DNA from: Chloroflexota bacterium
GTDB lineage: Bacteria > Chloroflexota > Anaerolineae > B4-G1 > SLSP01
DNA: 64,000 nt
Direction of reading: 5' to 3'
Assembly (NCBI GenBank): GCA_034717835.1
Contig: JAYELZ010000256.1
Coordinates: 1,639 to 65,638, forward strand
Part shown: piece by piece, positions 27,131-43,264 of the stretch
How the letters are laid out: each line of letters starts with the position of its first letter
Position numbering within the stretch: position 1 is the first letter of the stretch
Translations under genes and position numbers: made by a program
The notes under the pieces: generated by a model
Database searches by the model: none
Seen by the model: the letters and a program-made list of their open reading frames with translations, nothing else
What the model was told of the DNA's origin: nothing

Positions 27131-27258
27131 GATTGATTAGAGGTGAAGTTGTGTAGCTGTTCCGGTTGGCACTTTAGGGGGAGACTAGTTTGATCATTAC
27201 TTGTTTCCCCTTTTCTTTGGTGTATAATGGATACGTTGCGTTGAGGCGCGACTCATTT

Positions 27259-28443
27259 ATGAATAAAATAGAAAATTCGTTTACAAAAGCTACAGCTATG
27301 GGTACGAGGAGCCTCGGAGATATGGCTAATGCTTTGAGAAAATTTGTTGTAGGGGCTTGGCGATTACTTGGCGAGCGACAGGCCGTTGTTTCACTATTGG
27401 GACGTTACAGCGCGCATATGGCTATTATCGCGTTGGCGTTCCTTTTAATTTCTCTTCAACATTTTTCCTTTGCTAGTACCCTCGTGGCCGGCGGGCCGCT
27501 CCCCTCTTTGAAGGCCGTAGCAGAGCCGCTGGCTACTCCTACCTCTGCCGTTGATGTTCTAGACTCCTGGCAGATTCCAGTGCAGGAGGCCATCACTAGA
27601 AAGGCCTTGCCCTATACGGATATTCCAGAACGAGTACGTCTGGAAGTGATTACTTACACTGTCCAAGCCAATGATACGGTGTGGGGTATTGCCGAGCATT
27701 TTGAACTTGCTCCGACGACCATTGTTTGGTCTAATATGGAGGTTTTGCAAGGCGCTCCGTGGTTGTTGCAGCCCGGCTTGACATTGGATATCCCGCCTGT
27801 GGATGGAGCTTACCATACCGTTGGTGCCGGGGAGTCGGTGACCAGCATTGCGGCTGATTACGAGGTGGAAACCGCGACGATTTACAATATTTGGAATGGT
27901 TTGGAGCGCGGTAACGCGATTCGCGAAGGTCAAATTTTGGTCATTCCCGGGGGTATTGGCGAGGACTTTGATTGGGAGCCGCCGCCACCACCTGCGCAGA
28001 CCGGGGTGGCCTCGGCTAATTATAGTTACGGTTTTTGTGGCAATGTGGGTGTGAGTGGCCCCGGGGCTAATGGTTGGTTTGGGTTGCCTACCGGTTCCTA
28101 TGCTGTCTCTGGATATGTTTTCCATGACCCCCGTAATCCCAGACATAATGGATTAGATTATCGTTGTCATCTGGGCGATGCTATTTATGCGGCTGATAAT
28201 GGGGTAGTTGTTTATGCCGGTTGGGCCAACGGATATGGCAATCTGGTTAAAGTTGATCATGGGAATGGCTTTATGACTTACTACGCACATCTGGACTCGG
28301 TTTGGGTGAGTTGTGGACAGGCAATTTATCAAGGTAGCGTGGTAGGGCCTTGTGGTACGACTGGTTGGTCAACGGGGCCGCATTTGCATTTTGAAATCCG
28401 TAGTGGCGGCGTACCTCAGAATCCGGCTTTCTACCAGCCGTAA
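27259..28443 (+). CDS. Membrane-anchored LysM-domain M23 (LytM-type) peptidase, copy 1
   Basis: TM anchor, two LysM repeats, then an M23 core (HNGLDY, GNLVKVDHGNGFMTYYAHL, GPHLHFEIR). Confidence 0.8.
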   Translation: MNKIENSFTKATAMGTRSLGDMANALRKFVVGAWRLLGERQAVVSLLGRYSAHMAIIALAFLLISLQHFSFASTLVAGGPLPSLKAVAEPLATPTSAVDVLDSWQIPVQEAITRKALPYTDIPERVRLEVITYTVQANDTVWGIAEHFELAPTTIVWSNMEVLQGAPWLLQPGLTLDIPPVDGAYHTVGAGESVTSIAADYEVETATIYNIWNGLERGNAIREGQILVIPGGIGEDFDWEPPPPPAQTGVASANYSYGFCGNVGVSGPGANGWFGLPTGSYAVSGYVFHDPRNPRHNGLDYRCHLGDAIYAADNGVVVYAGWANGYGNLVKVDHGNGFMTYYAHLDSVWVSCGQAIYQGSVVGPCGTTGWSTGPHLHFEIRSGGVPQNPAFYQP

Positions 28444-28448
28444 GGATT

Positions 28449-29570
28449 ATGGTGGGATCAGTAGAAGTACGCGAGCCAGCAGCGTGGCGTGGGCAATTCC
28501 TAACCCAGGCCATTGCTGTTTTTGTGGCTAGAATTTGGCATTGGAACGCGGATCGTTCTGGACAACGTCCGTTACTGGGGCGTTTGGCGGCTCATCTAGC
28601 TGTATTCCTCGTTGCACTGTTGATTTGGGGCGGCGGGGGCTTGCATTTCCCCTCTCTTTTAGGCGTTTCCTCCCAAGCAGCTAATTTGCCTGCCTCCCAA
28701 TTATTGACTGGACAAGTGTCTAATAGCCAGAGCGCGGTGACTTCTACGCGCGCTTATTATCGCGCTAACTCTAGTGGCCTGATTCCGCGCCAGCCTAAAC
28801 CACACACAGCTATCCCCGTCCGTCCACGCTTGGAAGTGGTAACTTATCAGGTACAGCCGGGCGATACCACAGAATCCATTGCCGCGGATTTTGGCCTACA
28901 ACCGACTACTATTATGTGGTCTAATCCCTCTATTGAAAAATCCCCCGATTTGTTGAAGTTGGGACAGGAATTGTTTATTTTGCCGTTAGATGGCGTTTAT
29001 CACACGGTGAAGGAAGGGGACGTTCTAGAATCGCTGGCTGAAGATTATAAAGTCTCGGTGCGGGATATCGTTAAATGCAGATTTAATAGCATTTCTTCCG
29101 AAGGGCGGTTGACGGTAGGTAGCAAAATTATTGTCCCTAGCGGCACGAAACCTTACGAGCGGCAGCAGGTGGTGGCTTATGCTGGCACGGTTTCTGCAGA
29201 GGCCGTCGGAGGGGGGATTTTCTTCTGGCCAGTGCGTGGCTGGATCAGCCAAGGGTACTGGTGGGGGCATCGGGCTGTTGATATTGCGAATGATGTGGGT
29301 ACGGCGATTAAGGCTGCCGATGTGGGGTATGTGAGTTTTGCGGGTTGGACGGATATTGGTTACGGTTATCTGGTGGTGTTGGATCATGCCAATGGGTACC
29401 AAACTTATTACGCCCATCTGAGCGATTTTTTCGTGGCTGCCGGCCAAACTGTGCAGGCTGGGCAGGTTATTGGTGCTATGGGCAGTACGGGTAACTCTAC
29501 CGGGCCGCATTTACATTTTGAGATACGCTATAATCATTATCCGACGAACCCTTTGATCTACTTGCCGTAA
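28449..29570 (+). CDS. Membrane-anchored LysM-domain M23 peptidase, copy 2 (tandem paralog)
   Basis: Same architecture as copy 1 (HRAVDI, GYLVVLDHANGYQTYYAHL, GPHLHFEIR), 5 nt downstream of it. Confidence 0.8.
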   Translation: MVGSVEVREPAAWRGQFLTQAIAVFVARIWHWNADRSGQRPLLGRLAAHLAVFLVALLIWGGGGLHFPSLLGVSSQAANLPASQLLTGQVSNSQSAVTSTRAYYRANSSGLIPRQPKPHTAIPVRPRLEVVTYQVQPGDTTESIAADFGLQPTTIMWSNPSIEKSPDLLKLGQELFILPLDGVYHTVKEGDVLESLAEDYKVSVRDIVKCRFNSISSEGRLTVGSKIIVPSGTKPYERQQVVAYAGTVSAEAVGGGIFFWPVRGWISQGYWWGHRAVDIANDVGTAIKAADVGYVSFAGWTDIGYGYLVVLDHANGYQTYYAHLSDFFVAAGQTVQAGQVIGAMGSTGNSTGPHLHFEIRYNHYPTNPLIYLP

Positions 29571-31930: not shown

Positions 31931-32401
31931 CTACGCAATGCTTAAAATATTGAAGATGATATCGCCATCGGGAGCCGCTACTATGGCTTGGTCGCCAATC
32001 TGCTTGTTCAACAAGGCCTCGCCTAAGGGCGACTCATTGGAAATTTTCCCATTCCGGGGATCAGCTTCGGCGGAACCGACTACGTGGTAAACTTCCGGGG
32101 TGGTAGTTCCCTCTTCTTCTATTGTAACGCGGCAGCCGACGATGACAATGTTATTATGAACTTCGTTTTCAATGAGAACTGCACGGCGGAGCTGGTGTTC
32201 GATGGTTTGAATTTGTCCCTCAATGAAGGATTGTTCGCGGAGGGCGTCCTCTAACTCAGCATTTTCAATCAGTTCTCCTTCTTCCAAGGCTTCATGCAAG
32301 CGCGCTGCTACTTCTCTACGCCGCACTTGGATTAGATGTTGAAGTTTATCTTTTAGCTCTGCATACCCTTCTTTGGTAATGTAGACTGGGCGTTGATTCA
32401 T
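31931..32401 (-). CDS. greA: Transcription elongation factor GreA
   Basis: 156 aa with an N-terminal coiled-coil and a C-terminal FKBP-like domain. Confidence 0.88.
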   Translation of the reverse strand: MNQRPVYITKEGYAELKDKLQHLIQVRRREVAARLHEALEEGELIENAELEDALREQSFIEGQIQTIEHQLRRAVLIENEVHNNIVIVGCRVTIEEEGTTTPEVYHVVGSAEADPRNGKISNESPLGEALLNKQIGDQAIVAAPDGDIIFNILSIA

Positions 32402-32638
32402 AAAATTTAATTTCTCCTTCCTAGAGGTTGCTGTGACATGTATTTGGATGATTTACCAACTTGGTCAAAGTGGTGAGGTGGTGAAATACAAAAAACCCGA
32501 GAGTGCCATTGTGGCGCTCACAGGTAAATGGATAATACCATAGGTTGAATCTTTGTAAAGTTGATGGCGAATAAAATGTACTTAGTTGGAGCGGTTTGGT
32601 CATTGTTCAACCGCTATTTTTCGTTTCTCGGAGGGTTG

Positions 32639-33844
32639 CTATTCTGGCCTGCTGGGTGTCTGACAGGGGAGGGCGAAAGCAAAAGTGCTCCCTTGGCCTA
32701 GCTCACTTACGGCCCAAATGCGGCCGTGATGCGCAGTGATAATTTGACGGGAGATATGAAGTCCCAGCCCAGAGCCAACCGCGCGTTCTTCACTGCCGGG
32801 CAGCCGGGAGAATTTCTGGAAGAGGAGGGCGAGATGCTCTTGCGAGATGCCCTCTCCATGATCGGCGACGCTTACTATTACCTCGCCAGCTTGTACTTCG
32901 CAAGTTACATCGATAATGGTCTGTGGAGCCGCGTATTTGACGGCATTGGAGAGAAAGTTGAGTAGCACTTGTCCAATCCGTTGGGCGTCTCCAGTTACCA
33001 GCGGTAATTTCTCAGAGCAGGTTTGGTTAATTTGCATGTCGCGTTGAGCGGCGCGCGGCAGGATTACGTTGACGGCCTGGGAGATAATAGCAGGAAAGGA
33101 GAGTTCGCTCTTTTTCATGGTTACGCGCCCAGATTCCAGCTGTGCCAGATCTAAGAATTGATTGATCAGTGCTCCTACTCGCTCCGCTTCTTGTTGGATG
33201 ATTTGAATGAATTGTATACTTAGTTCGTGGTTAAGATTGGGGCGTTCTAACAAATCTGCATAAGAGAGGATGGAGGTCAACGGCGTGCGTATCTCGTGGA
33301 CAATTTCGGCAATCCAGTCATTTTGTTGGAAGAGGCGCGCATTTTGCACGGCCACCGCGGCGATGTTGGCTAACGTCTCCAAAGTTTCTACGTCTTGTAG
33401 CGTAAAATGGTGAGTTTGTTGGTGTGTTAGGACTTCCAGCACCCCGATAATTTGGGAGCCAAAAGGCATCGGCACGGCGATGATGGAACGGACCTCGCTA
33501 TTCAGGGGGAGATTATACATGCGCGGGTCAGACTCCGCATCCTCCACGATAGCAGTCTGTTTTTGTTGGATTACCCAACCGGCCAGACTACCCGTGATGG
33601 GAACTTCGGCGCTTTCTAGCACCGAGGTTTTGGGCCCACAAGAGGCGGCGAAACGTAAGGAGTTCTCGCTATCCATCAGCAAGATCGAAGCCGCCCCAGC
33701 CGCGGTCATGTCGCGCGCAGATTCGACGATGCGCAGTAATAGCGGTCGCATTTCTAGGGTGGAGTTGAGCTGCCGGCTGATAGCAAGTATTTGTTCCAGG
33801 GTATTGATTCTCTGTCGCAGTACAGATGCTTCCGATGAATTCAT
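32639..33844 (-). CDS. Cytoplasmic GAF-domain sensor histidine kinase
   Basis: GAF domain, then HisKA (HEIRTPLTSI) and HATPase_c (N, G1, G2 boxes). No TM segments. Confidence 0.8.
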   Translation of the reverse strand: MNSSEASVLRQRINTLEQILAISRQLNSTLEMRPLLLRIVESARDMTAAGAASILLMDSENSLRFAASCGPKTSVLESAEVPITGSLAGWVIQQKQTAIVEDAESDPRMYNLPLNSEVRSIIAVPMPFGSQIIGVLEVLTHQQTHHFTLQDVETLETLANIAAVAVQNARLFQQNDWIAEIVHEIRTPLTSILSYADLLERPNLNHELSIQFIQIIQQEAERVGALINQFLDLAQLESGRVTMKKSELSFPAIISQAVNVILPRAAQRDMQINQTCSEKLPLVTGDAQRIGQVLLNFLSNAVKYAAPQTIIDVTCEVQAGEVIVSVADHGEGISQEHLALLFQKFSRLPGSEERAVGSGLGLHISRQIITAHHGRIWAVSELGQGSTFAFALPCQTPSRPE

Positions 33845-33896
33845 AAATTCCCTTTGATTATTCCCCAGCGTAAGGGATGAAGAAAATTGGATTAGG

Positions 33897-35036
33897 TTAC
33901 AATTGTTTTAGTATGTCGTCAACTAGCATTTTGACCTGTTTTGAGATTAAGCTGGCGGGGCGGCTGACCACCATTGGCCGGTGGGTAGTCCAACTTTCCT
34001 GTGCTAAATCTGGTGAGGGGGGAATATTTCCCAGGATGTCTTGATGCAGTTGCGCTTTGATCTGCTCTCGAGTGACTGCGGAGGCCGCCCGGGCACGGTA
34101 GACAAGCTCCAGTTTAATTCTATTTTCTTCGATGTTCAATATCTGTAGTTGGTGGAGCATTTTTTCGGCGAGTTTAAGCGTGATATTATCTGGCGCTAGG
34201 GTGAGTAAAATGTAATCGGCTTGCTGGAGGAGTTCATTGACTGGGGGCGCAACAGATGGCGGCAGATCAAAGAGTAGATAATCATAGTGCTTTTTCAAGA
34301 GCGTGTGCAAGGAAGCGACGGAATCCCGAGTTAGGAGAGGGGTCGTGCCCGTCGGTGCAGCCGTGGCCGGGAGAAGGCGTAATTCGGCAGAGTGGGAGAG
34401 CATTTGATCTTCTAGGGCGTTTAGGGTTAGTCGTGTAGATTCTTGTGCGAGCAATTTTTGCAAGTTCCTATCTGTTGCCTGTCCCATTTGTAGAGCCAGC
34501 GATCCACTACCATTTTTTAATTCCACTAGAATAACTTTTTTCTCAGGCACTTCGCTGCTGAGGGTAATGGCTGTATTGAGCGCCAGAGTACTGTTTCCGG
34601 TGCCGCCTTTGACCGGCAGGAAGGTGATGACTTTGCCGCGTGTGCGGGTTAATTCTTGTTGCCGGGCGGTACGTTGCAGCAGCGCTTCCACACGGGTCGT
34701 CAACTCGGCGGGGTGAATGGGTTTAGTAATGTAATCATCTGCTCCAGATTGAAACCCCTTGATCTTGTCCGCCAGAGTGCTCTTGGCGGTGAATAAGAGG
34801 ATGGGAATGTTGGCAGTTTGAGGATTCCCGCGTAATTCTTGGGTTACCTTGTACCCGTCCATTTGGGGCATCATCACATCCAGGACGATAAGATCAGGTG
34901 GTGTTTCTGTGATACTGGCCAATCCTTGTTTCCCTGAAGATGCGGCTTGGATGACATACCCTTTGCGCTCCAACATCAAACCGATTAAGCGTAAGGCTTC
35001 CAGATCATCATCTATAATTAAGACGTTGTATGACAT
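33897..35036 (-). CDS. Response-regulator receiver domain fused to a MinD/ParA-like ATPase domain with a degenerate Walker A (KGGTGNST)
   Basis: The REC domain has DD, D53 (LIVLDVMMP), T (TAKS) and K (KP). The C-terminal half is MinD/CpaE-like (VKGGTGNSTLALN), and the signature lysine of KGGxGK[ST] is replaced by N. Confidence 0.75.
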   Translation of the reverse strand: MSYNVLIIDDDLEALRLIGLMLERKGYVIQAASSGKQGLASITETPPDLIVLDVMMPQMDGYKVTQELRGNPQTANIPILLFTAKSTLADKIKGFQSGADDYITKPIHPAELTTRVEALLQRTARQQELTRTRGKVITFLPVKGGTGNSTLALNTAITLSSEVPEKKVILVELKNGSGSLALQMGQATDRNLQKLLAQESTRLTLNALEDQMLSHSAELRLLPATAAPTGTTPLLTRDSVASLHTLLKKHYDYLLFDLPPSVAPPVNELLQQADYILLTLAPDNITLKLAEKMLHQLQILNIEENRIKLELVYRARAASAVTREQIKAQLHQDILGNIPPSPDLAQESWTTHRPMVVSRPASLISKQVKMLVDDILKQL

Positions 35037-35395
35037 GGGGTAGTCTCCCCGGTTGCTGTTTCGTGGTTAGATTCTCTGGAACAGATTATACGCTTAAGAG
35101 AGCAAAACTTCAAGGTGGCTAATTAGTTTCCTGAAGGTTTCTGTAGTGAGATGTTCTTTTTTATGGAAGAGGCATAGTGCAGCTATTGTTATTCCATGTA
35201 TGTTTAGGGCATTTCTAACCAAAAGTAGCATGAGGGAGTTTTGGGGATAGAATAGTTTATATTCAGTTGTGTAGTTGCCAATCTTATCTTTCCGATGTAT
35301 TATGAAGGGAAGTTTTGGGAAGAGTCCATGTATAGCAATGGTTGGGTAAGCTATCCTTTTTTAGATTCATGCTGACATCCCAACAGGTGTGCTCT

Positions 35396-38300
35396 ATGGG
35401 TATTAAGTTTGAAATTTGGCGGCAACCAGGACAATTCTCATTGATGTTCCCAGAGTCTTGGGTGGGTTTCATTTTGATGGGCCTTTACTTGGTTCTGGGG
35501 GTGGGGTTTCTATTTGCGCGGCGCAATGATTTCAAGCGTATGGATCTCAAAGCCTGGTTCATTTTTGTTGTGACTCTCTTCCTGCTCTTGCCGGCCAGTG
35601 CCGGTTTGATTGTCTCGCGGTCAGTGGGAGGGGTGCTGTTGATTGTTCCGGTTACTGTGTTGCGCTCTCCCCCCACACTTTCTCTTGTGGCGTTATTGAT
35701 AGTAAGTGCGCTTAGCCTGTGGTGGGGGCCGGGACCGGGAGCGGTTGCCGGCTTTTTGGCGGGGGTGGCGAGTGCTTGGGTTTCTCCGCAAATTCTGGTT
35801 GACACTTTTGCCTGGGCGGTTTGGGGTATGTTGTTGGGAGAGCTCTGGCAGCAGCCTTATCAGGGCAGTCTTTTTGATATTTTACGTTTACCGTCGGTTG
35901 TTCCGGTGGGAGCTGCTTTAGCTCCTTTGATATTGCTCAGTTTCAATCGTTTAGTTGAATCTATGTCTCTGGGCACGCTGCTGGTTGTTGATTATGCAGT
36001 TGCTCCTTTTCGTGATGCGGGGTTACTCTGGCTGTTGAGTGGCTTGGCAGTGGGAATTATTTTCACAGTGCTCTTCTGGCTGTGGCCCGACATTCGTCCG
36101 GTGCAACGTTCGGACATAATCTCTCTCTTCCGGCGTTCATTACGCGCACGTTTAATGATTGCATTGGTACCGCTCCTGGTGTTGAGTATTGTCTTCTCGA
36201 TTATGGCTGTTACCCAGCAGGCGCTCTCACTCGCTCGCCAACAAGCCTTGGGGGAGATGGCGCGGAGCGCTGATACCGCGGCTAGCGGTATCGCTAATTT
36301 TTACTACACCGGTTCCAATTTGCTGGAGGAATTCTCTGTCGCTCCAGCTCTGCGTGAACCAGATACCCGCGCGGCAGTCTTGCAAACCGATCGTCGAGTA
36401 GTGCCTTTCTTCCAAGAAATGCTCCTGGTGGATGCTGACGGCGCAGTAGTAGTTTCTGTCCCCCCCGATATCCCTGTGCCTCCGCTGACGGCGGAGGAAC
36501 AGGAACTGATAGCACAAGCCTTAGACTTTGGCATGTCACGCTCTACGCATGTGACGGCTCTTCCTGGTGGCGAACAACGACTGACATTCATCCATCCCCT
36601 TTTGGAGGGGGATGTCGCTGTCGGTGCAATTCTGGGGCGGGTGGATTTTAGCATCAACCCTAGTACCAAGCGCGTTCTAGAGACCTTACAGGGCACTCGC
36701 GGCGAGGGAACCGGTTTTATCTTGGATGATCGGAATGTAATCATTGCTTATCCCGATCCCCGTGTTGTGTTGCGCCCGTGGAAACCAAGTGAGAATGTAG
36801 TCTCATATCCAATGGAAAATGGCGCAGCGTATGAAGATGTCGGCCCAGATGGGAATCGAGTGTTGGTGTATCTGCGCGAAGTAGTGCGCGGGATTACAAT
36901 GGTGATTCGCTTGCCCTTCACGGTGGTTTTAGAGGCGGCGGCTTTTATCTCTAATCCTTTGCTGTACGTGCAATTGGGCACCGGCATTTTGTTGGCTTTG
37001 ATCTTGTCCTTGTTGGCCGCGCGCATTACCCGCCCGCTGGAGGCGCTCTCTGAGGCAACTCATCAAATCGAACAAGGGAATTTGGAAACCCCGGTGCATA
37101 TCTCTGGCGAAGACGAGGTGGCGCGATTGGGGAGCTCTTTCGAGTTGATGCGACGCCGTTTGCGTGACCGGTTGAATGATCTCTCACTTCTCTTGCAAGT
37201 TTCGCAGTCTGTTTCTGCAACTTTGGAATTGAAGGAAGGGGTTCCGTTAATTCTGGAAGGTATATTGGCGGAGACTCAGGCGGTTGTCGCTCGTTTAGTA
37301 GTTTTGAAGAGCGATGAGTACTCTCAACAGCTATTCTCGGTGGGAGCAGAGCATGAGACATTCGCACAACTAGATAAGGCTATCATTATAGCCTTGCAGC
37401 GCCGCCACGAGCCGTTGGTGAGCCAATATCTGCGGCGAGAAAATATCATGCCGGCGCTCAACGATGTCTTGCGCAGTTTGGTCGCTTTCCCGGTGCGGAT
37501 TCACCAGCAGATGGTCGCGGTGATGTGGGTGGGCGCTAGTGAGCCGGCGGCCTTTGACGAGGCCCGTATGAATTTCCTCAACACGCTGGTAAGTCAAGCC
37601 GCGGTTTTGGTGGAGAACACGCGGCTCTTCCAGGCAGCAGAGGGAGGGCGCCAACGCTTAGCTGCCATTTTGTCCAGCACTACGGACGCTATCTTGGTCA
37701 CGGATCAAGAACAGCAGCTGCTATTGATCAACCCGGCTGCACAGCGTATCTTGAAGTTGAGCGAACTGGCTTATGGGCGTCCAGTGGCACAATTGGAGCA
37801 GATTCCCGCCCAACTTAAAGAGGTGCTAGTCCGCCCGTATGATAAACCGGCGGCTTCTCCGACTGTAGAGGTTGAATTGTCGGATGGAAGAGTATTTGTG
37901 GCTAGCGTGGCGCCTGTCAAGAGTCTCTCTGAGATTGAAAATGGTAGTCGGGTGGTGGTGCTACGGGACGTGACGCATTTCAAAGAATTAGATGAGATGA
38001 AGACCGAGTTTGTGTCCACCGTCTCCCATGATTTACGTGCCCCGCTTACTTTTATTCAAGGTTATACGAGCATGTTGACGATGGTGGGGCAGCTGAACGA
38101 TAAGCAGCAAGAGTACATGCAGCGGATTCTAAAGGGGATTGAGCAGATGAAAGACCTGATTGATGATCTGCTCAATCTACGTCGGATCGAGGCCGGAGTG
38201 GGGATTGTCACCGAGCCGTGTCGCTTGGGGTTGGTGATGTTGGAAGCAGTGAGTTCTATGCGCGCACGGGCGGTGGAGAAAGGCATCTCATTGCATTTGG

Positions 38301-38689
38301 AGCCTTCCGAAGGTACGTATTCTGTCATGGGAGATCGTATTCTGCTCCGTCAAGTTATCAGCAATTTGATCGATAATGCCATCAAATATACCTCAGCTGC
38401 AGGAGAGGTACGCCTTGGACTAGTGGCCAACGAGCGCGATGCAGAGGTAGTGCTACACGTCACCGATACCGGGATGGGGATCTCGGTGGAGGAGCAGCTC
38501 CGGCTTTTTGAGAAATTCTATCGCATAAAGCGGCGGGAAACCACCAGCATCCCCGGGACTGGATTGGGATTAGCGTTAGTCAAATCGATTGTGGGCCGGC
38601 ACGGAGGGCGCGTCTGGGTAGATAGCAAACTTAATGAGGGAGCCACCTTTTTTGTAGCGTTGCCTATGGTATTAGCTGCGGAAACGTAG
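35396..38689 (+). CDS. Large multi-domain membrane sensor histidine kinase (polytopic N-terminus, HAMP, GAF, PAS, HisKA, HATPase_c)
   Basis: About 8 predicted TM helices over the first 300 aa, a HAMP (...EDEVARLGSSFELMRRRL), a GAF, a PAS (TDAILVTDQEQQLLLINPAAQRIL), then H-box STVSHDLRAPLT and ATPase boxes. The start is uncertain: the ORF track's TTG 35342 or ATG 35396. Confidence 0.8.
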   Translation: MGIKFEIWRQPGQFSLMFPESWVGFILMGLYLVLGVGFLFARRNDFKRMDLKAWFIFVVTLFLLLPASAGLIVSRSVGGVLLIVPVTVLRSPPTLSLVALLIVSALSLWWGPGPGAVAGFLAGVASAWVSPQILVDTFAWAVWGMLLGELWQQPYQGSLFDILRLPSVVPVGAALAPLILLSFNRLVESMSLGTLLVVDYAVAPFRDAGLLWLLSGLAVGIIFTVLFWLWPDIRPVQRSDIISLFRRSLRARLMIALVPLLVLSIVFSIMAVTQQALSLARQQALGEMARSADTAASGIANFYYTGSNLLEEFSVAPALREPDTRAAVLQTDRRVVPFFQEMLLVDADGAVVVSVPPDIPVPPLTAEEQELIAQALDFGMSRSTHVTALPGGEQRLTFIHPLLEGDVAVGAILGRVDFSINPSTKRVLETLQGTRGEGTGFILDDRNVIIAYPDPRVVLRPWKPSENVVSYPMENGAAYEDVGPDGNRVLVYLREVVRGITMVIRLPFTVVLEAAAFISNPLLYVQLGTGILLALILSLLAARITRPLEALSEATHQIEQGNLETPVHISGEDEVARLGSSFELMRRRLRDRLNDLSLLLQVSQSVSATLELKEGVPLILEGILAETQAVVARLVVLKSDEYSQQLFSVGAEHETFAQLDKAIIIALQRRHEPLVSQYLRRENIMPALNDVLRSLVAFPVRIHQQMVAVMWVGASEPAAFDEARMNFLNTLVSQAAVLVENTRLFQAAEGGRQRLAAILSSTTDAILVTDQEQQLLLINPAAQRILKLSELAYGRPVAQLEQIPAQLKEVLVRPYDKPAASPTVEVELSDGRVFVASVAPVKSLSEIENGSRVVVLRDVTHFKELDEMKTEFVSTVSHDLRAPLTFIQGYTSMLTMVGQLNDKQQEYMQRILKGIEQMKDLIDDLLNLRRIEAGVGIVTEPCRLGLVMLEAVSSMRARAVEKGISLHLEPSEGTYSVMGDRILLRQVISNLIDNAIKYTSAAGEVRLGLVANERDAEVVLHVTDTGMGISVEEQLRLFEKFYRIKRRETTSIPGTGLGLALVKSIVGRHGGRVWVDSKLNEGATFFVALPMVLAAET

Positions 38690-38773: not shown

Positions 38774-39499
38774 TTACCGTGCTCGGTAGCGTTCCCAGAG
38801 GGTGGATAATGTCTTCTCTAGACGTTCGCCTAGGGCTGCTCCCCGTGGCGTGGTGACATCATCCTCGTTTTCGAAAACGGCGTAAGGCATTCGCGTTCCT
38901 TTGATGGTTAGATATTGCGTAGCGTCCCCCTTGACAGTTTCCCAATCATCCTCACGGTAGAGCCGCTCAAGTTTTTCATCGCTCAAGCTATGCTCCAGGA
39001 GGCTGTCGGGGCGTGCTGGATTGGCGCGGGCGCGATTCTTGCGTAGAGATTCCGCGTAGGAGACATGGACATACAGCAAACTCCCGTGTTGCAAAATTTG
39101 GGGGGAGAGGTGTTGGTAAGCGGCTTGATATCCTCCGTGTTCCGTGCCGCGCGAGAACTCTATCAGCGTAGTATATTGCTGCTGATAACGAGGGTGGTCG
39201 CGTAGGCGTTTGTCATACTCCAGTCCCAGGCGTTCAATTAACAAATGCCAGAAGTATTCCTCTTTGAAATAACCTTGCGCATCGCTGTGCAAACGGGGGT
39301 ATCCCCTGCGGTTGAGCAGGGCGTCTTCCTCGAACCAGGTCCAGAGCAGGGGGAAATCATCAATGCTATCTAGCTTGCCGACATGGAAACGGGATTGGCG
39401 TTCCGCCAGCGGGGTCTTGGTTAAATAGTCAATAATTTCACTCTTGCCGGCGCCTGGCCGAGCATTGAGTATCAATATGGGAAAGATGTTGGAATTCAT
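38774..39499 (-). CDS. P-loop (Walker A GAGKS) kinase-like protein of unassigned family
   Basis: N-terminal ILILNARPGAGKSEII. 241 aa with no TM segments. Confidence 0.5.
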   Translation of the reverse strand: MNSNIFPILILNARPGAGKSEIIDYLTKTPLAERQSRFHVGKLDSIDDFPLLWTWFEEDALLNRRGYPRLHSDAQGYFKEEYFWHLLIERLGLEYDKRLRDHPRYQQQYTTLIEFSRGTEHGGYQAAYQHLSPQILQHGSLLYVHVSYAESLRKNRARANPARPDSLLEHSLSDEKLERLYREDDWETVKGDATQYLTIKGTRMPYAVFENEDDVTTPRGAALGERLEKTLSTLWERYRAR

Positions 39500-40978: not shown

Positions 40979-42007
40979 TCAGATATCATCTACTGGTCGT
41001 TGCCACGGATGCCACTCTTCTTCCCAGCTCAATTCGCCTTCCCCGTTGAACTCCTCTGGAGCAGCGTAGAATTTGTTGAGGTCTTGGTGTAGGAATTCTA
41101 GCTCTTGGAGGGCTTCCTCGGCTGCCGTTTGTAACACCTCATTCTCGGAATCTTGATAGCGTTGCAGCGTGCGGCGCGCGCGTTCCCCGCCGATCTGGCC
41201 CAAGGCCCATAAGGCCGTTTGTTGTATTTCCGCATCCACATCCTGAGTCAACTCTATGAGCGTGGGGATGGCCGTGCTCACAGCCAGTTCGCCGCAAGCG
41301 CGGACCGCTTCGTAGCGCATGGCGGGATTTGCGGATTCCAGGTGTCGGGTGACGGTGCCTCTCCAACGCGAGTCCGCACTGCGTCCCATGGCGAAAACGG
41401 CGCTGAGCTGCATTTCCTCTGCAGGGTCTTCGTACGCGGCTTGAATCAATTTTGTTATTTCTGGTTCCCCGACGTAGGCCAGGGATTCCAGTGCCCGCCG
41501 GCGTACTTCCAGGGTCTCGGTTGGCTTGCGATGCGCTTCAAGCAGGAAGTGGTAAGCTTTCTCGAAAAAATAGGGAGAGATTTGTTGTAGCTCGCCCCAG
41601 AGAATGAAATTAGCCAGAGCTTGCGCGGCGGCCAAGCGGACGGCCTCTTCTGCATCTTCCGAGAGGCAGTGTCCTAGTTGGGAGATGAGACGTACATCTT
41701 GCTCTTCCCACAGTCCCTGGATAGCGGCGGCGCGGATTTGTCCATCGAGATCGGTCAACGCCAGCGTGAAGACGGCGCTGAAATCTAGGGCGAAGTCATT
41801 TTCGGCTAGTTCAATGAGCGTGGTGAGCAATCGCCGACGTTCCGTGATGGGAAGTCGCCGCCAAACTTGAGCCAACCGCTCCTGCTCGGCCACCGATAGA
41901 CTGGCTAACTGCGCCCATTGCTTGGCGTCAGGCAGTTGCTGGTGTTCTTCTAAGGCTTGCCAGAGTTCTTCTTTGTTGGTCGTAGGATCGTATTCGCTAA
42001 AATCCAT
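40979..42007 (-). CDS. HEAT-repeat (PBS-lyase-like) protein
   Basis: Multiple ~30-aa HEAT-like repeats with A..AL..IG motifs. Acidic and soluble. Confidence 0.6.
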   Translation of the reverse strand: MDFSEYDPTTNKEELWQALEEHQQLPDAKQWAQLASLSVAEQERLAQVWRRLPITERRRLLTTLIELAENDFALDFSAVFTLALTDLDGQIRAAAIQGLWEEQDVRLISQLGHCLSEDAEEAVRLAAAQALANFILWGELQQISPYFFEKAYHFLLEAHRKPTETLEVRRRALESLAYVGEPEITKLIQAAYEDPAEEMQLSAVFAMGRSADSRWRGTVTRHLESANPAMRYEAVRACGELAVSTAIPTLIELTQDVDAEIQQTALWALGQIGGERARRTLQRYQDSENEVLQTAAEEALQELEFLHQDLNKFYAAPEEFNGEGELSWEEEWHPWQRPVDDI

Positions 42008-42046
42008 GTGGTACTCCTTGTTTATCCACAGATTGCTATTTGTGTT

Positions 42047-43264
42047 CTAGGGCAGCAGCGCCGGTAAATCGACCGGATGGAGCAGATCCAAGACGGTGAT
42101 CACTGCAAAGATCAGGAGGAGTATGGATAAAGCCACCTGGTGGATGCGTTCTTGCAAGCGGGGACTGAGCGGTTCTTTTCTGAGCAACTCAATAACCGTG
42201 AGGAGGATGCGTCCCCCGTCCAAGGCCGGGATGGGTAACAGGTTGAAAATCCCCAGGCTGACGCTGACCAGGATGAGCAGGTTGAGGATGGGGACTAACG
42301 TCCCTTGTGTGAAGCTCTGCTCAATGCTCTGATAAGCGATCCGGCTGATATTGATAATTCCTACCGGGCGGGCGGCTTCGGCTGGAATTAGTCCCTGTAC
42401 CAGCTCCACCGGCATCCAGATGGTCTTCCAGGTGATGAAGAAGAAGGTCCGGCTGCCTTGCAGCAGTGCTTGGCCGATGGGTACCGCTTCAATGTGATAC
42501 TCGGTCGGTTCGCCCTGGAGCATGACGCCCATGGAACCTTCGTTCGCGGGTGGAGCGATGCGTGGGGTGAGTGCGACGGTGAGCTCTGCGTCGCCACGTC
42601 CCACGGTGAGCGTCATCTCTTGGCCCAGCTGTTGCTGGGTACGCGCTATTACTTCCTCTATGTCCAACCCTCGCTCTCCGTTGATGGCGAGGATGACATC
42701 ATCCGCCTGCAAGTTGACTTCTGCGGCCGGTGAATGCGGCGCGACCTGCGTGATACGTACCAGCATCTCATCAACGATAGGGATGCCGGTGGTGAAGAGC
42801 AGAATTGCCAGCACCCAGGCGGTTAGTAAGTTCATCAGCGGGCCGCCCAGGTAGATGAGGATGCGTTTGACGGGCGATTTAGCGTAAAGGCTATGCTCGT
42901 GGGCGGCCTGGAGTTCAGCCGCCGTTGGCGGCACTTTCTCCGTTGCGTATGGCCTCATATCATCTTCGTCCATTAGCACGGGTTCCTGAGTTTCCACCAG
43001 CAGCGTTAGTTCTTCCTCCGCGGGAGGCTCAACGGTACCTGTGAGATCCTCTTCGCCTTCCATCCGGGCAAAGCCGCCCAGCGGCAGCCAGTTGAGGGTG
43101 AATTCCGTCTCTTGCCACTTGAATAACTTCACGATGCGCGGCGGGAGGCCAATACCGAATTCTCTAACCCAGACGCCTAGCCATTTGGCGATGAACATGT
43201 GCCCCATTTCGTGTAAAACAATCAATGGTACTAAAGCTACTACAAAGCCAATTACTGAATTCAT
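42047..43264 (-). CDS. rseP: Site-2 protease / RIP zinc metalloprotease (RseP family, M50) with one PDZ domain
   Basis: HEMGH in TM1, a PDZ domain, and a distal LPIPALDGG motif. Confidence 0.85.
   Translation of the reverse strand: MNSVIGFVVALVPLIVLHEMGHMFIAKWLGVWVREFGIGLPPRIVKLFKWQETEFTLNWLPLGGFARMEGEEDLTGTVEPPAEEELTLLVETQEPVLMDEDDMRPYATEKVPPTAAELQAAHEHSLYAKSPVKRILIYLGGPLMNLLTAWVLAILLFTTGIPIVDEMLVRITQVAPHSPAAEVNLQADDVILAINGERGLDIEEVIARTQQQLGQEMTLTVGRGDAELTVALTPRIAPPANEGSMGVMLQGEPTEYHIEAVPIGQALLQGSRTFFFITWKTIWMPVELVQGLIPAEAARPVGIINISRIAYQSIEQSFTQGTLVPILNLLILVSVSLGIFNLLPIPALDGGRILLTVIELLRKEPLSPRLQERIHQVALSILLLIFAVITVLDLLHPVDLPALLP

Follow-up and report, generated by a model that had tools for sequence, protein, structure and literature searches.

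In a 64-kb stretch of a Chloroflexota genome (64,000 nucleotides of contig JAYELZ010000256.1, hereafter the window), a 379-residue response regulator (positions 33897–35036, minus strand, defined by open reading frame [ORF], translation, Pfam and an AlphaFold2 [AF2] model) joins a receiver to a MinD/ParA-fold domain in which the cis lysine of the P-loop is missing. The regulator is a TadZ/CpaE-type pseudo-ATPase with a real receiver that stands apart from pili and is associated with a GAF histidine kinase encoded beside it, with a sirtuin as an optional further component. Its domain identity, the status of its residues, their conservation across the family, the synteny with the kinase and the lack of tad neighbors were all observed directly. 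The reading that we favor, and hold to be somewhat more probable than not, is that regulator and kinase make up a two-component module complete in itself, with a MinD-like dimerizing adaptor, non-hydrolyzing and gated by phosphorylation, as its output.

The receiver (REC; residues 5–117, positions 34686–35024, minus strand; Pfam Response_reg, E = 5.5e-31) is, judged from its residues, catalytically complete and under strong constraint. It has the acidic pair D9/D10, the phospho-acceptor D53 (codon at 34878–34880, minus strand), T83, the switch residue Y102 and K105, and in an alignment of 87 full-length homologues these DD, D, T, Y and K positions are invariant or at least 90% conserved; an earlier sequence-only reading of this DNA, which held that the receiver keeps all its phospho-acceptor residues, is borne out. 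(Residue numbers are those of the protein; the alignments and the AF2 model start after Met1, so that residue i there is protein residue i+1.) The best matches of the receiver are PleD and RpaA, and its type is the canonical OmpR/PleD-like one. With PleD and CheY-like adaptors the protein thus shares a canonical receiver and an adjacent HisKA kinase, but its output is a degenerate MinD fold rather than a DNA-binding or GGDEF domain.

In MinD, the cis P-loop lysine is K16 and the trans "signature" lysine is K11. In the deviant Walker A motif of the regulator, KGGTGNST (residues 143–150, positions 34587–34610, minus strand, by translation), N148 sits where the cis lysine is expected, and the trans lysine K143 is retained. 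HMMER alignments that are free of gaps across the P-loop place N148 opposite the K of GKT in MinD (4V03), Soj (1WCV) and ParA (8RAY), so that no regapping restores the lysine; a regapped alignment that would bring it back was considered and rejected on the gap-free alignments to MinD and Soj. The change from KGGxGK[ST] to KGGTGNST proposed from the sequence is therefore real, but it had been assigned to the wrong lysine, because the signature lysine is kept and the canonical cis lysine is the one that is missing. Nor is it a loss in this protein, as had been supposed: among the best 120 homologues the motif reads [K/R]GGxG[N/T/V/A/S/I][ST][TS], with lysine in the cis column in 0 of 120, and in 131 representatives of 50%-identity clusters this column holds T (58), V (44), A (13), N (6) or other residues (10) and never K. 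The trans column in the same 131 representatives is K in 101, R in 25 and another residue in 5 (K or R in 126 of 131). By this distribution, the absence of the cis lysine is ancestral to a large family, not a loss private to the window protein, and N148 is the variant that marks the window's own clade, T and V being commonest family-wide. A sequencing error or private mutation behind N148 was rejected, as the whole clade has N and no lysine occurs across the family. The switch-I (Walker A′) aspartates of MinD are D38 and D40; HMMER aligns E172 and K174 with them, so that the DxD of MinD reads E172-L-K174 here, and across the family the first position is E or D and the catalytic second one is variable (K, R, Q, V).

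The output domain as a whole (residues 135–379, positions 33900–34634, minus strand; Pfam AAA_31 at residues 135–303, E = 8.6e-12, with weaker matches to CBP_BcsQ, ParA and CbiA) is far more variable than the receiver. Across the 87 sequences only G145, G147, N154 and the Walker B aspartate D257 are invariant (they appear as G144, G146, N153 and D256 in the alignment output, in which Met1 is absent), and the mean identity is much lower than that of the receiver. These two features are what one would expect if the domain were an inert relic and the protein acted as a single-domain receiver, that is, as a connector of the GAF kinase and other kinases or as a sink for their phosphate; we consider this very improbable, since the domain is full length, has a confidently predicted fold and is retained in about 1,460 divergent clusters, and since the conserved G-rich loop, N154, D257, trans K/R and a number of further positions point to a nucleotide or dimer site under selection. 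The exact number of cluster representatives (50% identity) found with a profile of the C-terminal domain at E <= 1e-30 is 1,462, and the best 150 of these 1,462 all have the receiver-plus-domain layout or are fragments. The family appears to be restricted to Chloroflexota: the named sources and the full-length genome matches all belong to this phylum (Thermoflexia, Anaerolineae and Chloroflexia). The genome matches come from a full-length alignment scan of contigs keyed on receiver peptides, in which about 10 of 80 loci were true members and the others, generic response regulators, were disregarded. In automatic annotation the members of the family are labeled CpaE or "response regulator/pilus assembly protein," and we found no published study of the family.

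The AF2 model (predicted local distance difference test [pLDDT] 94.3, predicted template modeling score [pTM] 0.74) gives the output domain a MinD/ParA fold with high confidence and predicts that the long α5 helix of the receiver (residues 108–129) leads straight into β1 (134–140) and the P-loop. A profile search of the Protein Data Bank (PDB) with the full-length protein was dominated by receiver matches, and the C-terminal domain was used alone; it matches 3EA0 at E = 1.4e-28, archaeal MinD at 8.6e-20, TadZ 3FKQ at 9.4e-7 and BcsQ weakly, at about 1e-4. Among fold relatives the listed values are 28.5 for 3EA0, 25.7 for MinD, 25.6 for FleN, 25.2 for FlhG, 24.4 for ParA, 24.3 for BcsQ and 21.4 for Eubacterium rectale TadZ (3FKQ), making 3EA0 the top match in sequence and structure alike. 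Foldseek concurs, with 3FKQ as the only full-length match listed that has the receiver-plus-MinD-fold layout. The predicted fold and the MinD profile matches uphold the earlier description of the C-terminal domain as MinD-like. A search with the 3EA0 sequence identified it as the C-terminal domain from the 382-residue Chlorobaculum tepidum protein P0269, whose gene, flanked by tadG and cpaF, is part of a complete tad locus (L089:4394-15228, AE006470.1) comprising three flp genes, rcpC, the secretin gene, tadE, tadG, cpaE, cpaF, tadB, tadC and a prepilin peptidase gene. Because the 3EA0 gene belongs to such a locus, the output domain (26% pairwise identity to 3EA0, E = 1e-16) is by sequence a homologue of a genuine TadZ/CpaE, itself lysine-less (KGGDGGS), and the proposal that the ATPase-like domain is of TadZ/CpaE type holds, its best match likewise having no cis lysine.

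This homology raises the question of whether the regulator serves a Tad pilus. It could be a functional TadZ/CpaE of a pilus encoded elsewhere, with the receiver adding two-component control over the place or time of assembly (e.g., of ring formation around CpaF, as modeled for Caulobacter CpaE), and the affinity of its C-terminal domain to tad-locus CpaE/TadZ, the shared layout of an N-terminal receiver fold and a C-terminal MinD/ParA fold at nearly the same length (379 residues in the window protein versus 382 in P0269), the shared deviant Walker A without a cis lysine (in the solved examples, the C. tepidum CpaE C-domain 3EA0 and E. rectale TadZ 3FKQ, it reads KGGDGGS in the former) and the automatic annotation would all fit. 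We nevertheless regard it as fairly unlikely. The gene lies outside any tad locus and is paired with a GAF histidine kinase, and genes for T2SSE, T2SSF, Flp, secretin and prepilin peptidase were found neither in the 64-kb window nor in about 20 related neighborhoods, cpaF and tadB/C being likewise missing from the latter. A tblastn search with ten Chlorobaculum Tad proteins against the window and 17 loci, about 348 kb in all, in which Flp, RcpC, secretin, TadE, TadG, CpaF, TadB, TadC and prepilin peptidase were sought, gave no pilus-gene homologue, and tblastn for tad genes in further loci gave nothing relevant; the tad or pilus cargo suggested from the sequence thus has no counterpart in the window or among the genes flanking the module in about 20 relatives. 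One genome has two copies of the module, each with its own kinase, and the match to the E. rectale TadZ profile (9.4e-7) is weaker than those to MinD and Soj. A C-terminal amphipathic membrane-binding helix has been described for CpaE, and Chlorobaculum CpaE carries an extra basic amphipathic tail (...RSIWERLKIK), whereas the window protein, by inspection, ends at the last helix of the fold (...KMLVDDILKQL) with no such tail. The receivers differ as well: that of the window protein is phosphorylatable, the N-terminal domain of P0269 has none of the receiver catalytic residues (DD, D and K are gone), and two sources describe the TadZ receiver as "atypical" (PMC13170226; bioRxiv 10.64898/2026.07.08.737194). 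Chloroflexota metagenome-assembled genomes have been reported to carry Tad pili (PMC9942424, PMC11653643, PMC4877987), but the tad clusters described in Anaerolineales already contain a gene annotated CpaE (PMC4877987).

What accompanies the regulator is a kinase. The gene of the 401-residue GAF-HisKA-HATPase_c protein (32639–33844, minus strand; Pfam; H-box with H183, G-boxes present) starts 52 nt downstream of the regulator gene on the same strand, and the protein is cytoplasmic, with no strong transmembrane segment. In almost every full-length relative examined, down to 33–37% identity, the regulator is followed immediately downstream by an orthologue of this kinase, at spacings that range from overlaps to short gaps, and the dimerization and histidine phosphotransfer (DHp) domain of these GAF kinases has the conserved form AEIVHEIRTPLTSIL...LL.RP. 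The earlier claim that regulator and GAF kinase are wired together in one operon is strongly supported by this synteny, and the GAF kinase is presumably, on gene order and sequence, the cognate kinase of the regulator. In relatives at 56–71% identity the gene order regulator, GAF kinase, greA, lysS is kept, and in those at 33–40% identity (Anaerolineales and Chloroflexia) the genomic site is different and the GAF-HisKA orthologue is still directly downstream. In ten of these loci a gene for a CobB-type SIR2 protein (an NAD-dependent deacylase) stands between regulator and kinase, making a three-gene operon (L006:11170-11940, L007:11170-11946 and L090:3017-3781; the others are L009–L011 and L013–L016). 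Stop and start codons overlap in L006, L007 and L090, the three for which genes had been called, one genome holds two such three-gene modules, each with its own kinase, and the window's clade is without SIR2.

The surroundings of the module bear on another possibility, that in filamentous Chloroflexota the protein regulates division or septation in the manner of MinD/Ssd, phosphorylation controlling the recruitment of a division or cell-wall factor. Its conserved position, beside greA-lysS and a LysM-M23 pair here and beside tilS/mutL elsewhere (mutL lies just downstream in L008, L009, L012 and L017, and tilS just upstream in L008 and L017), suggests a vertically inherited core gene, and MinD is among the top structural matches. 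Neighbors vary between clades, however, so the synteny looks positional rather than functional, and minC, minE and divIVA are not nearby, nor does the protein have a membrane-targeting helix. The best matches in NCBIfam are indeed Ssd and MinD, but their scores lie far under the family cut-offs (53.7 bits versus 154.45 for Ssd/CpaE_hom_Actino, TIGR03815; 42.0 versus 212.9 for MinD, TIGR01968), BcsQ (TIGR03371) reaches 27.8 versus 157.85, and no curated model attains its cut-off, whether the output domain is scanned by itself or the best matches listed for the whole protein are considered. We therefore judge a role in division improbable. A mobile or defence-island origin of the module was also considered and was rejected because the housekeeping synteny is kept across classes.

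ParA/MinD-type proteins organize bacterial cells by means of an ATP-driven dimer cycle. In the phosphorylation-gated adaptor that we propose, the GAF domain of the cytoplasmic kinase would sense an intracellular ligand, and the kinase (H183) would phosphorylate D53 of the regulator. The TadZ/CpaE-derived output domain would be incapable of the MinD/ParA ATPase cycle, because both the cis P-loop lysine and the catalytic switch-I aspartate have been lost. Phosphorylation-driven dimerization of the receiver, relayed through the long α5 to β1 and the P-loop, would set whether the MinD-like sandwich dimer forms; this step is suggested by the receiver being the most constrained part of the protein and rigidly linked to the P-loop strand. 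The dimer may keep nucleotide stably bound and unhydrolyzed, as TadZ and BcsQ do, and would recruit or release a protein partner encoded elsewhere, so that timing, the task of ATP hydrolysis in MinD and ParA, would pass to aspartyl phosphorylation. Phosphotransfer, control of the dimer, nucleotide binding and the existence of a protein partner are the parts of this scheme that we infer. The function of the regulator would then be phosphorylation-controlled positioning or scaffolding, as the sequence-only reading had it; that reading was largely right in kind and went astray over the lysine, the private loss, the Tad link and, as described below, the place of a large membrane kinase.

Several known systems resemble this arrangement in part. 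MinD, FlhG (FleN) and ParA/Soj share with the window protein the trans lysine, the Walker B aspartate and the helix-1 Asn, and dimer-dependent partner binding would be expected in both cases, but their ATPase cycle needs the cis lysine and the switch-I Asp, neither of which the window protein has, and the window protein is without a membrane-targeting helix and without MinC/MinE, FlhF/FleQ or ParB neighbors. BcsQ is closer in its active site: its Walker A, [R/K]GGxG[T/x]TT, has the cis lysine replaced, many members of the present family read RGGLGVTT or KGGVGTTT, and the catalytic residue of switch-I is altered in both. BcsQ (R10/T15, altered switch-I) is a stable sandwich dimer with ATP, which it hydrolyzes weakly, and acts as an assembly adaptor (PMC7840130). 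It has no receiver, however, the window has no bcs genes nearby and no BcsR partner, and the similarity is weak. TadZ, with its deviant Walker A, binds ATP for dimerization, according to PMC13170226 and PMC6668835, and lysine-less MinD-family proteins such as TadZ and BcsQ are documented as ATP-binding, dimerizing adaptors that hydrolyze poorly (PMC13170226, PMC6668835, PMC7840130).

Four observations weigh against the adaptor that we propose. Where the family consensus NRxR has its adenine-contacting Asn, the window protein has a Tyr (LVYRAR), and because of this substitution ATP binding may be lost altogether in the window's clade. The AF2 model is of a single chain and carries no information on dimers. 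In L005:10001-11152, an orthologue with 43% identity sits upstream of greA as here and its receiver is intact, but the GAF kinase is gone; another kinase presumably serves this regulator, and since L005 has no GAF kinase, other kinases evidently can serve. Finally, the searches for tad genes covered flanks, and a Tad system elsewhere in the genome could be the target.

If the adaptor reading is right, TadZ and BcsQ, as static ATP-bound adaptors, would be joined by a third mode, a MinD-fold adaptor under two-component phosphorylation, of which the family would be a tractable case with a clear kinase partner. More speculatively, and with a chance of being correct that we put well short of even, the family is a phylum-wide Chloroflexota device in which aspartyl phosphorylation replaces the MinD/ParA hydrolysis clock: dimerization would be gated by the GAF kinase, joined in some cases by another, multi-sensor kinase and in many lineages by a CobB sirtuin under translational coupling, and the target would be a non-Tad one, for example a division, cell-envelope or filament-organization factor. 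In that case many of the CpaE calls from which Tad pili have been deduced in Chloroflexota genomes would be mis-assigned. That a sirtuin recurs in the operon hints that lysine deacylation and this response regulator may be connected. Labels such as CpaE or "pilus assembly protein" feed claims of complete Tad sets in wastewater and digester Chloroflexota (PMC9942424, PMC11653643); given the gene context, further evidence is needed before members of this family are counted among Tad components.

Divergent from the regulator is a large membrane kinase (35342–38689, plus strand; 1115 residues from a TTG start, H896; Pfam, hydropathy) with about eight hydrophobic segments at residues 34–298, a dCache-like extracytoplasmic region (dCache_1, weak) and, after the transmembrane part, HAMP, GAF, PAS, HisKA and HATPase_c domains. 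The intergenic region (35037–35395) measures 305 nt to the TTG and 359 nt to the first ATG at 35396, so that the shared 359-nt region of the sequence-only reading holds for the ATG; this kinase accompanies the regulator only in some lineages, namely the window, L001/L002 and L009. A divergently transcribed kinase of the same architecture occurs in L001/L002 (77% identity) and in L009 (33%), an Anaerolineales genome with a regulator of 37% identity, other loci are without one, and L007 and L090 have a different second kinase nearby. The DHp of the large kinase (EFVSTVSHDLRAPLTFIQGY...) is of another type than that of the GAF kinases, and because of this difference and the restriction to some lineages it is only a possible member of the module; a second input to the regulator is possible on these sequences. 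Promoter-like elements in the intergenic region, TTGAAG-17-TATAAT (35113–35085, minus strand) and TTGCCA-17-TATTAT (35275–35303, plus strand), are consensus matches only, of a kind of which 8 were observed versus 4.6 expected. Beyond the large kinase, a 241-residue ORF (38774–39499, minus strand) has no Pfam or NCBIfam match, and an ORF of the same length, also with no Pfam match, occupies the same site in L001/L002, where it has the large kinase on one side and a Peptidase_MA_2 gene on the other.

The rest of the window is made up of housekeeping genes (lysS, greA, two LysM-M23 peptidase genes, HD, rseP, aspS, a radA-like gene, ftsK and yggT, among others). The leader of greA (gene at 31931–32401) contains, at 32490–32560 on the minus strand, a promoter-like TTTACA-16-TG-TATTAT followed by a stem-loop with a T-run that could be a leader terminator or attenuator. 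The tandem LysM-Peptidase_M23 pair (27190–29570, plus strand) stands beside HD-lysS-greA in all relatives of the clade. In the closest relative (L001:1238-2965), an extra SLFN_AlbA_2/HATPase_c_4 gene lies between rseP and a HEAT-repeat gene, and the window has no SLFN_AlbA_2 gene at about 42007–42047, so that the two differ by a small indel of a gene that may serve defence or regulation. Over positions 1–28000 the GC skew is strongly positive, at +0.15 to +0.24 per 2-kb window, and it nears zero in the second half of the stretch; within 1–28000 the longest ORFs are all on the plus strand, and the minus-strand ORFs are short and overlap plus-strand ones.

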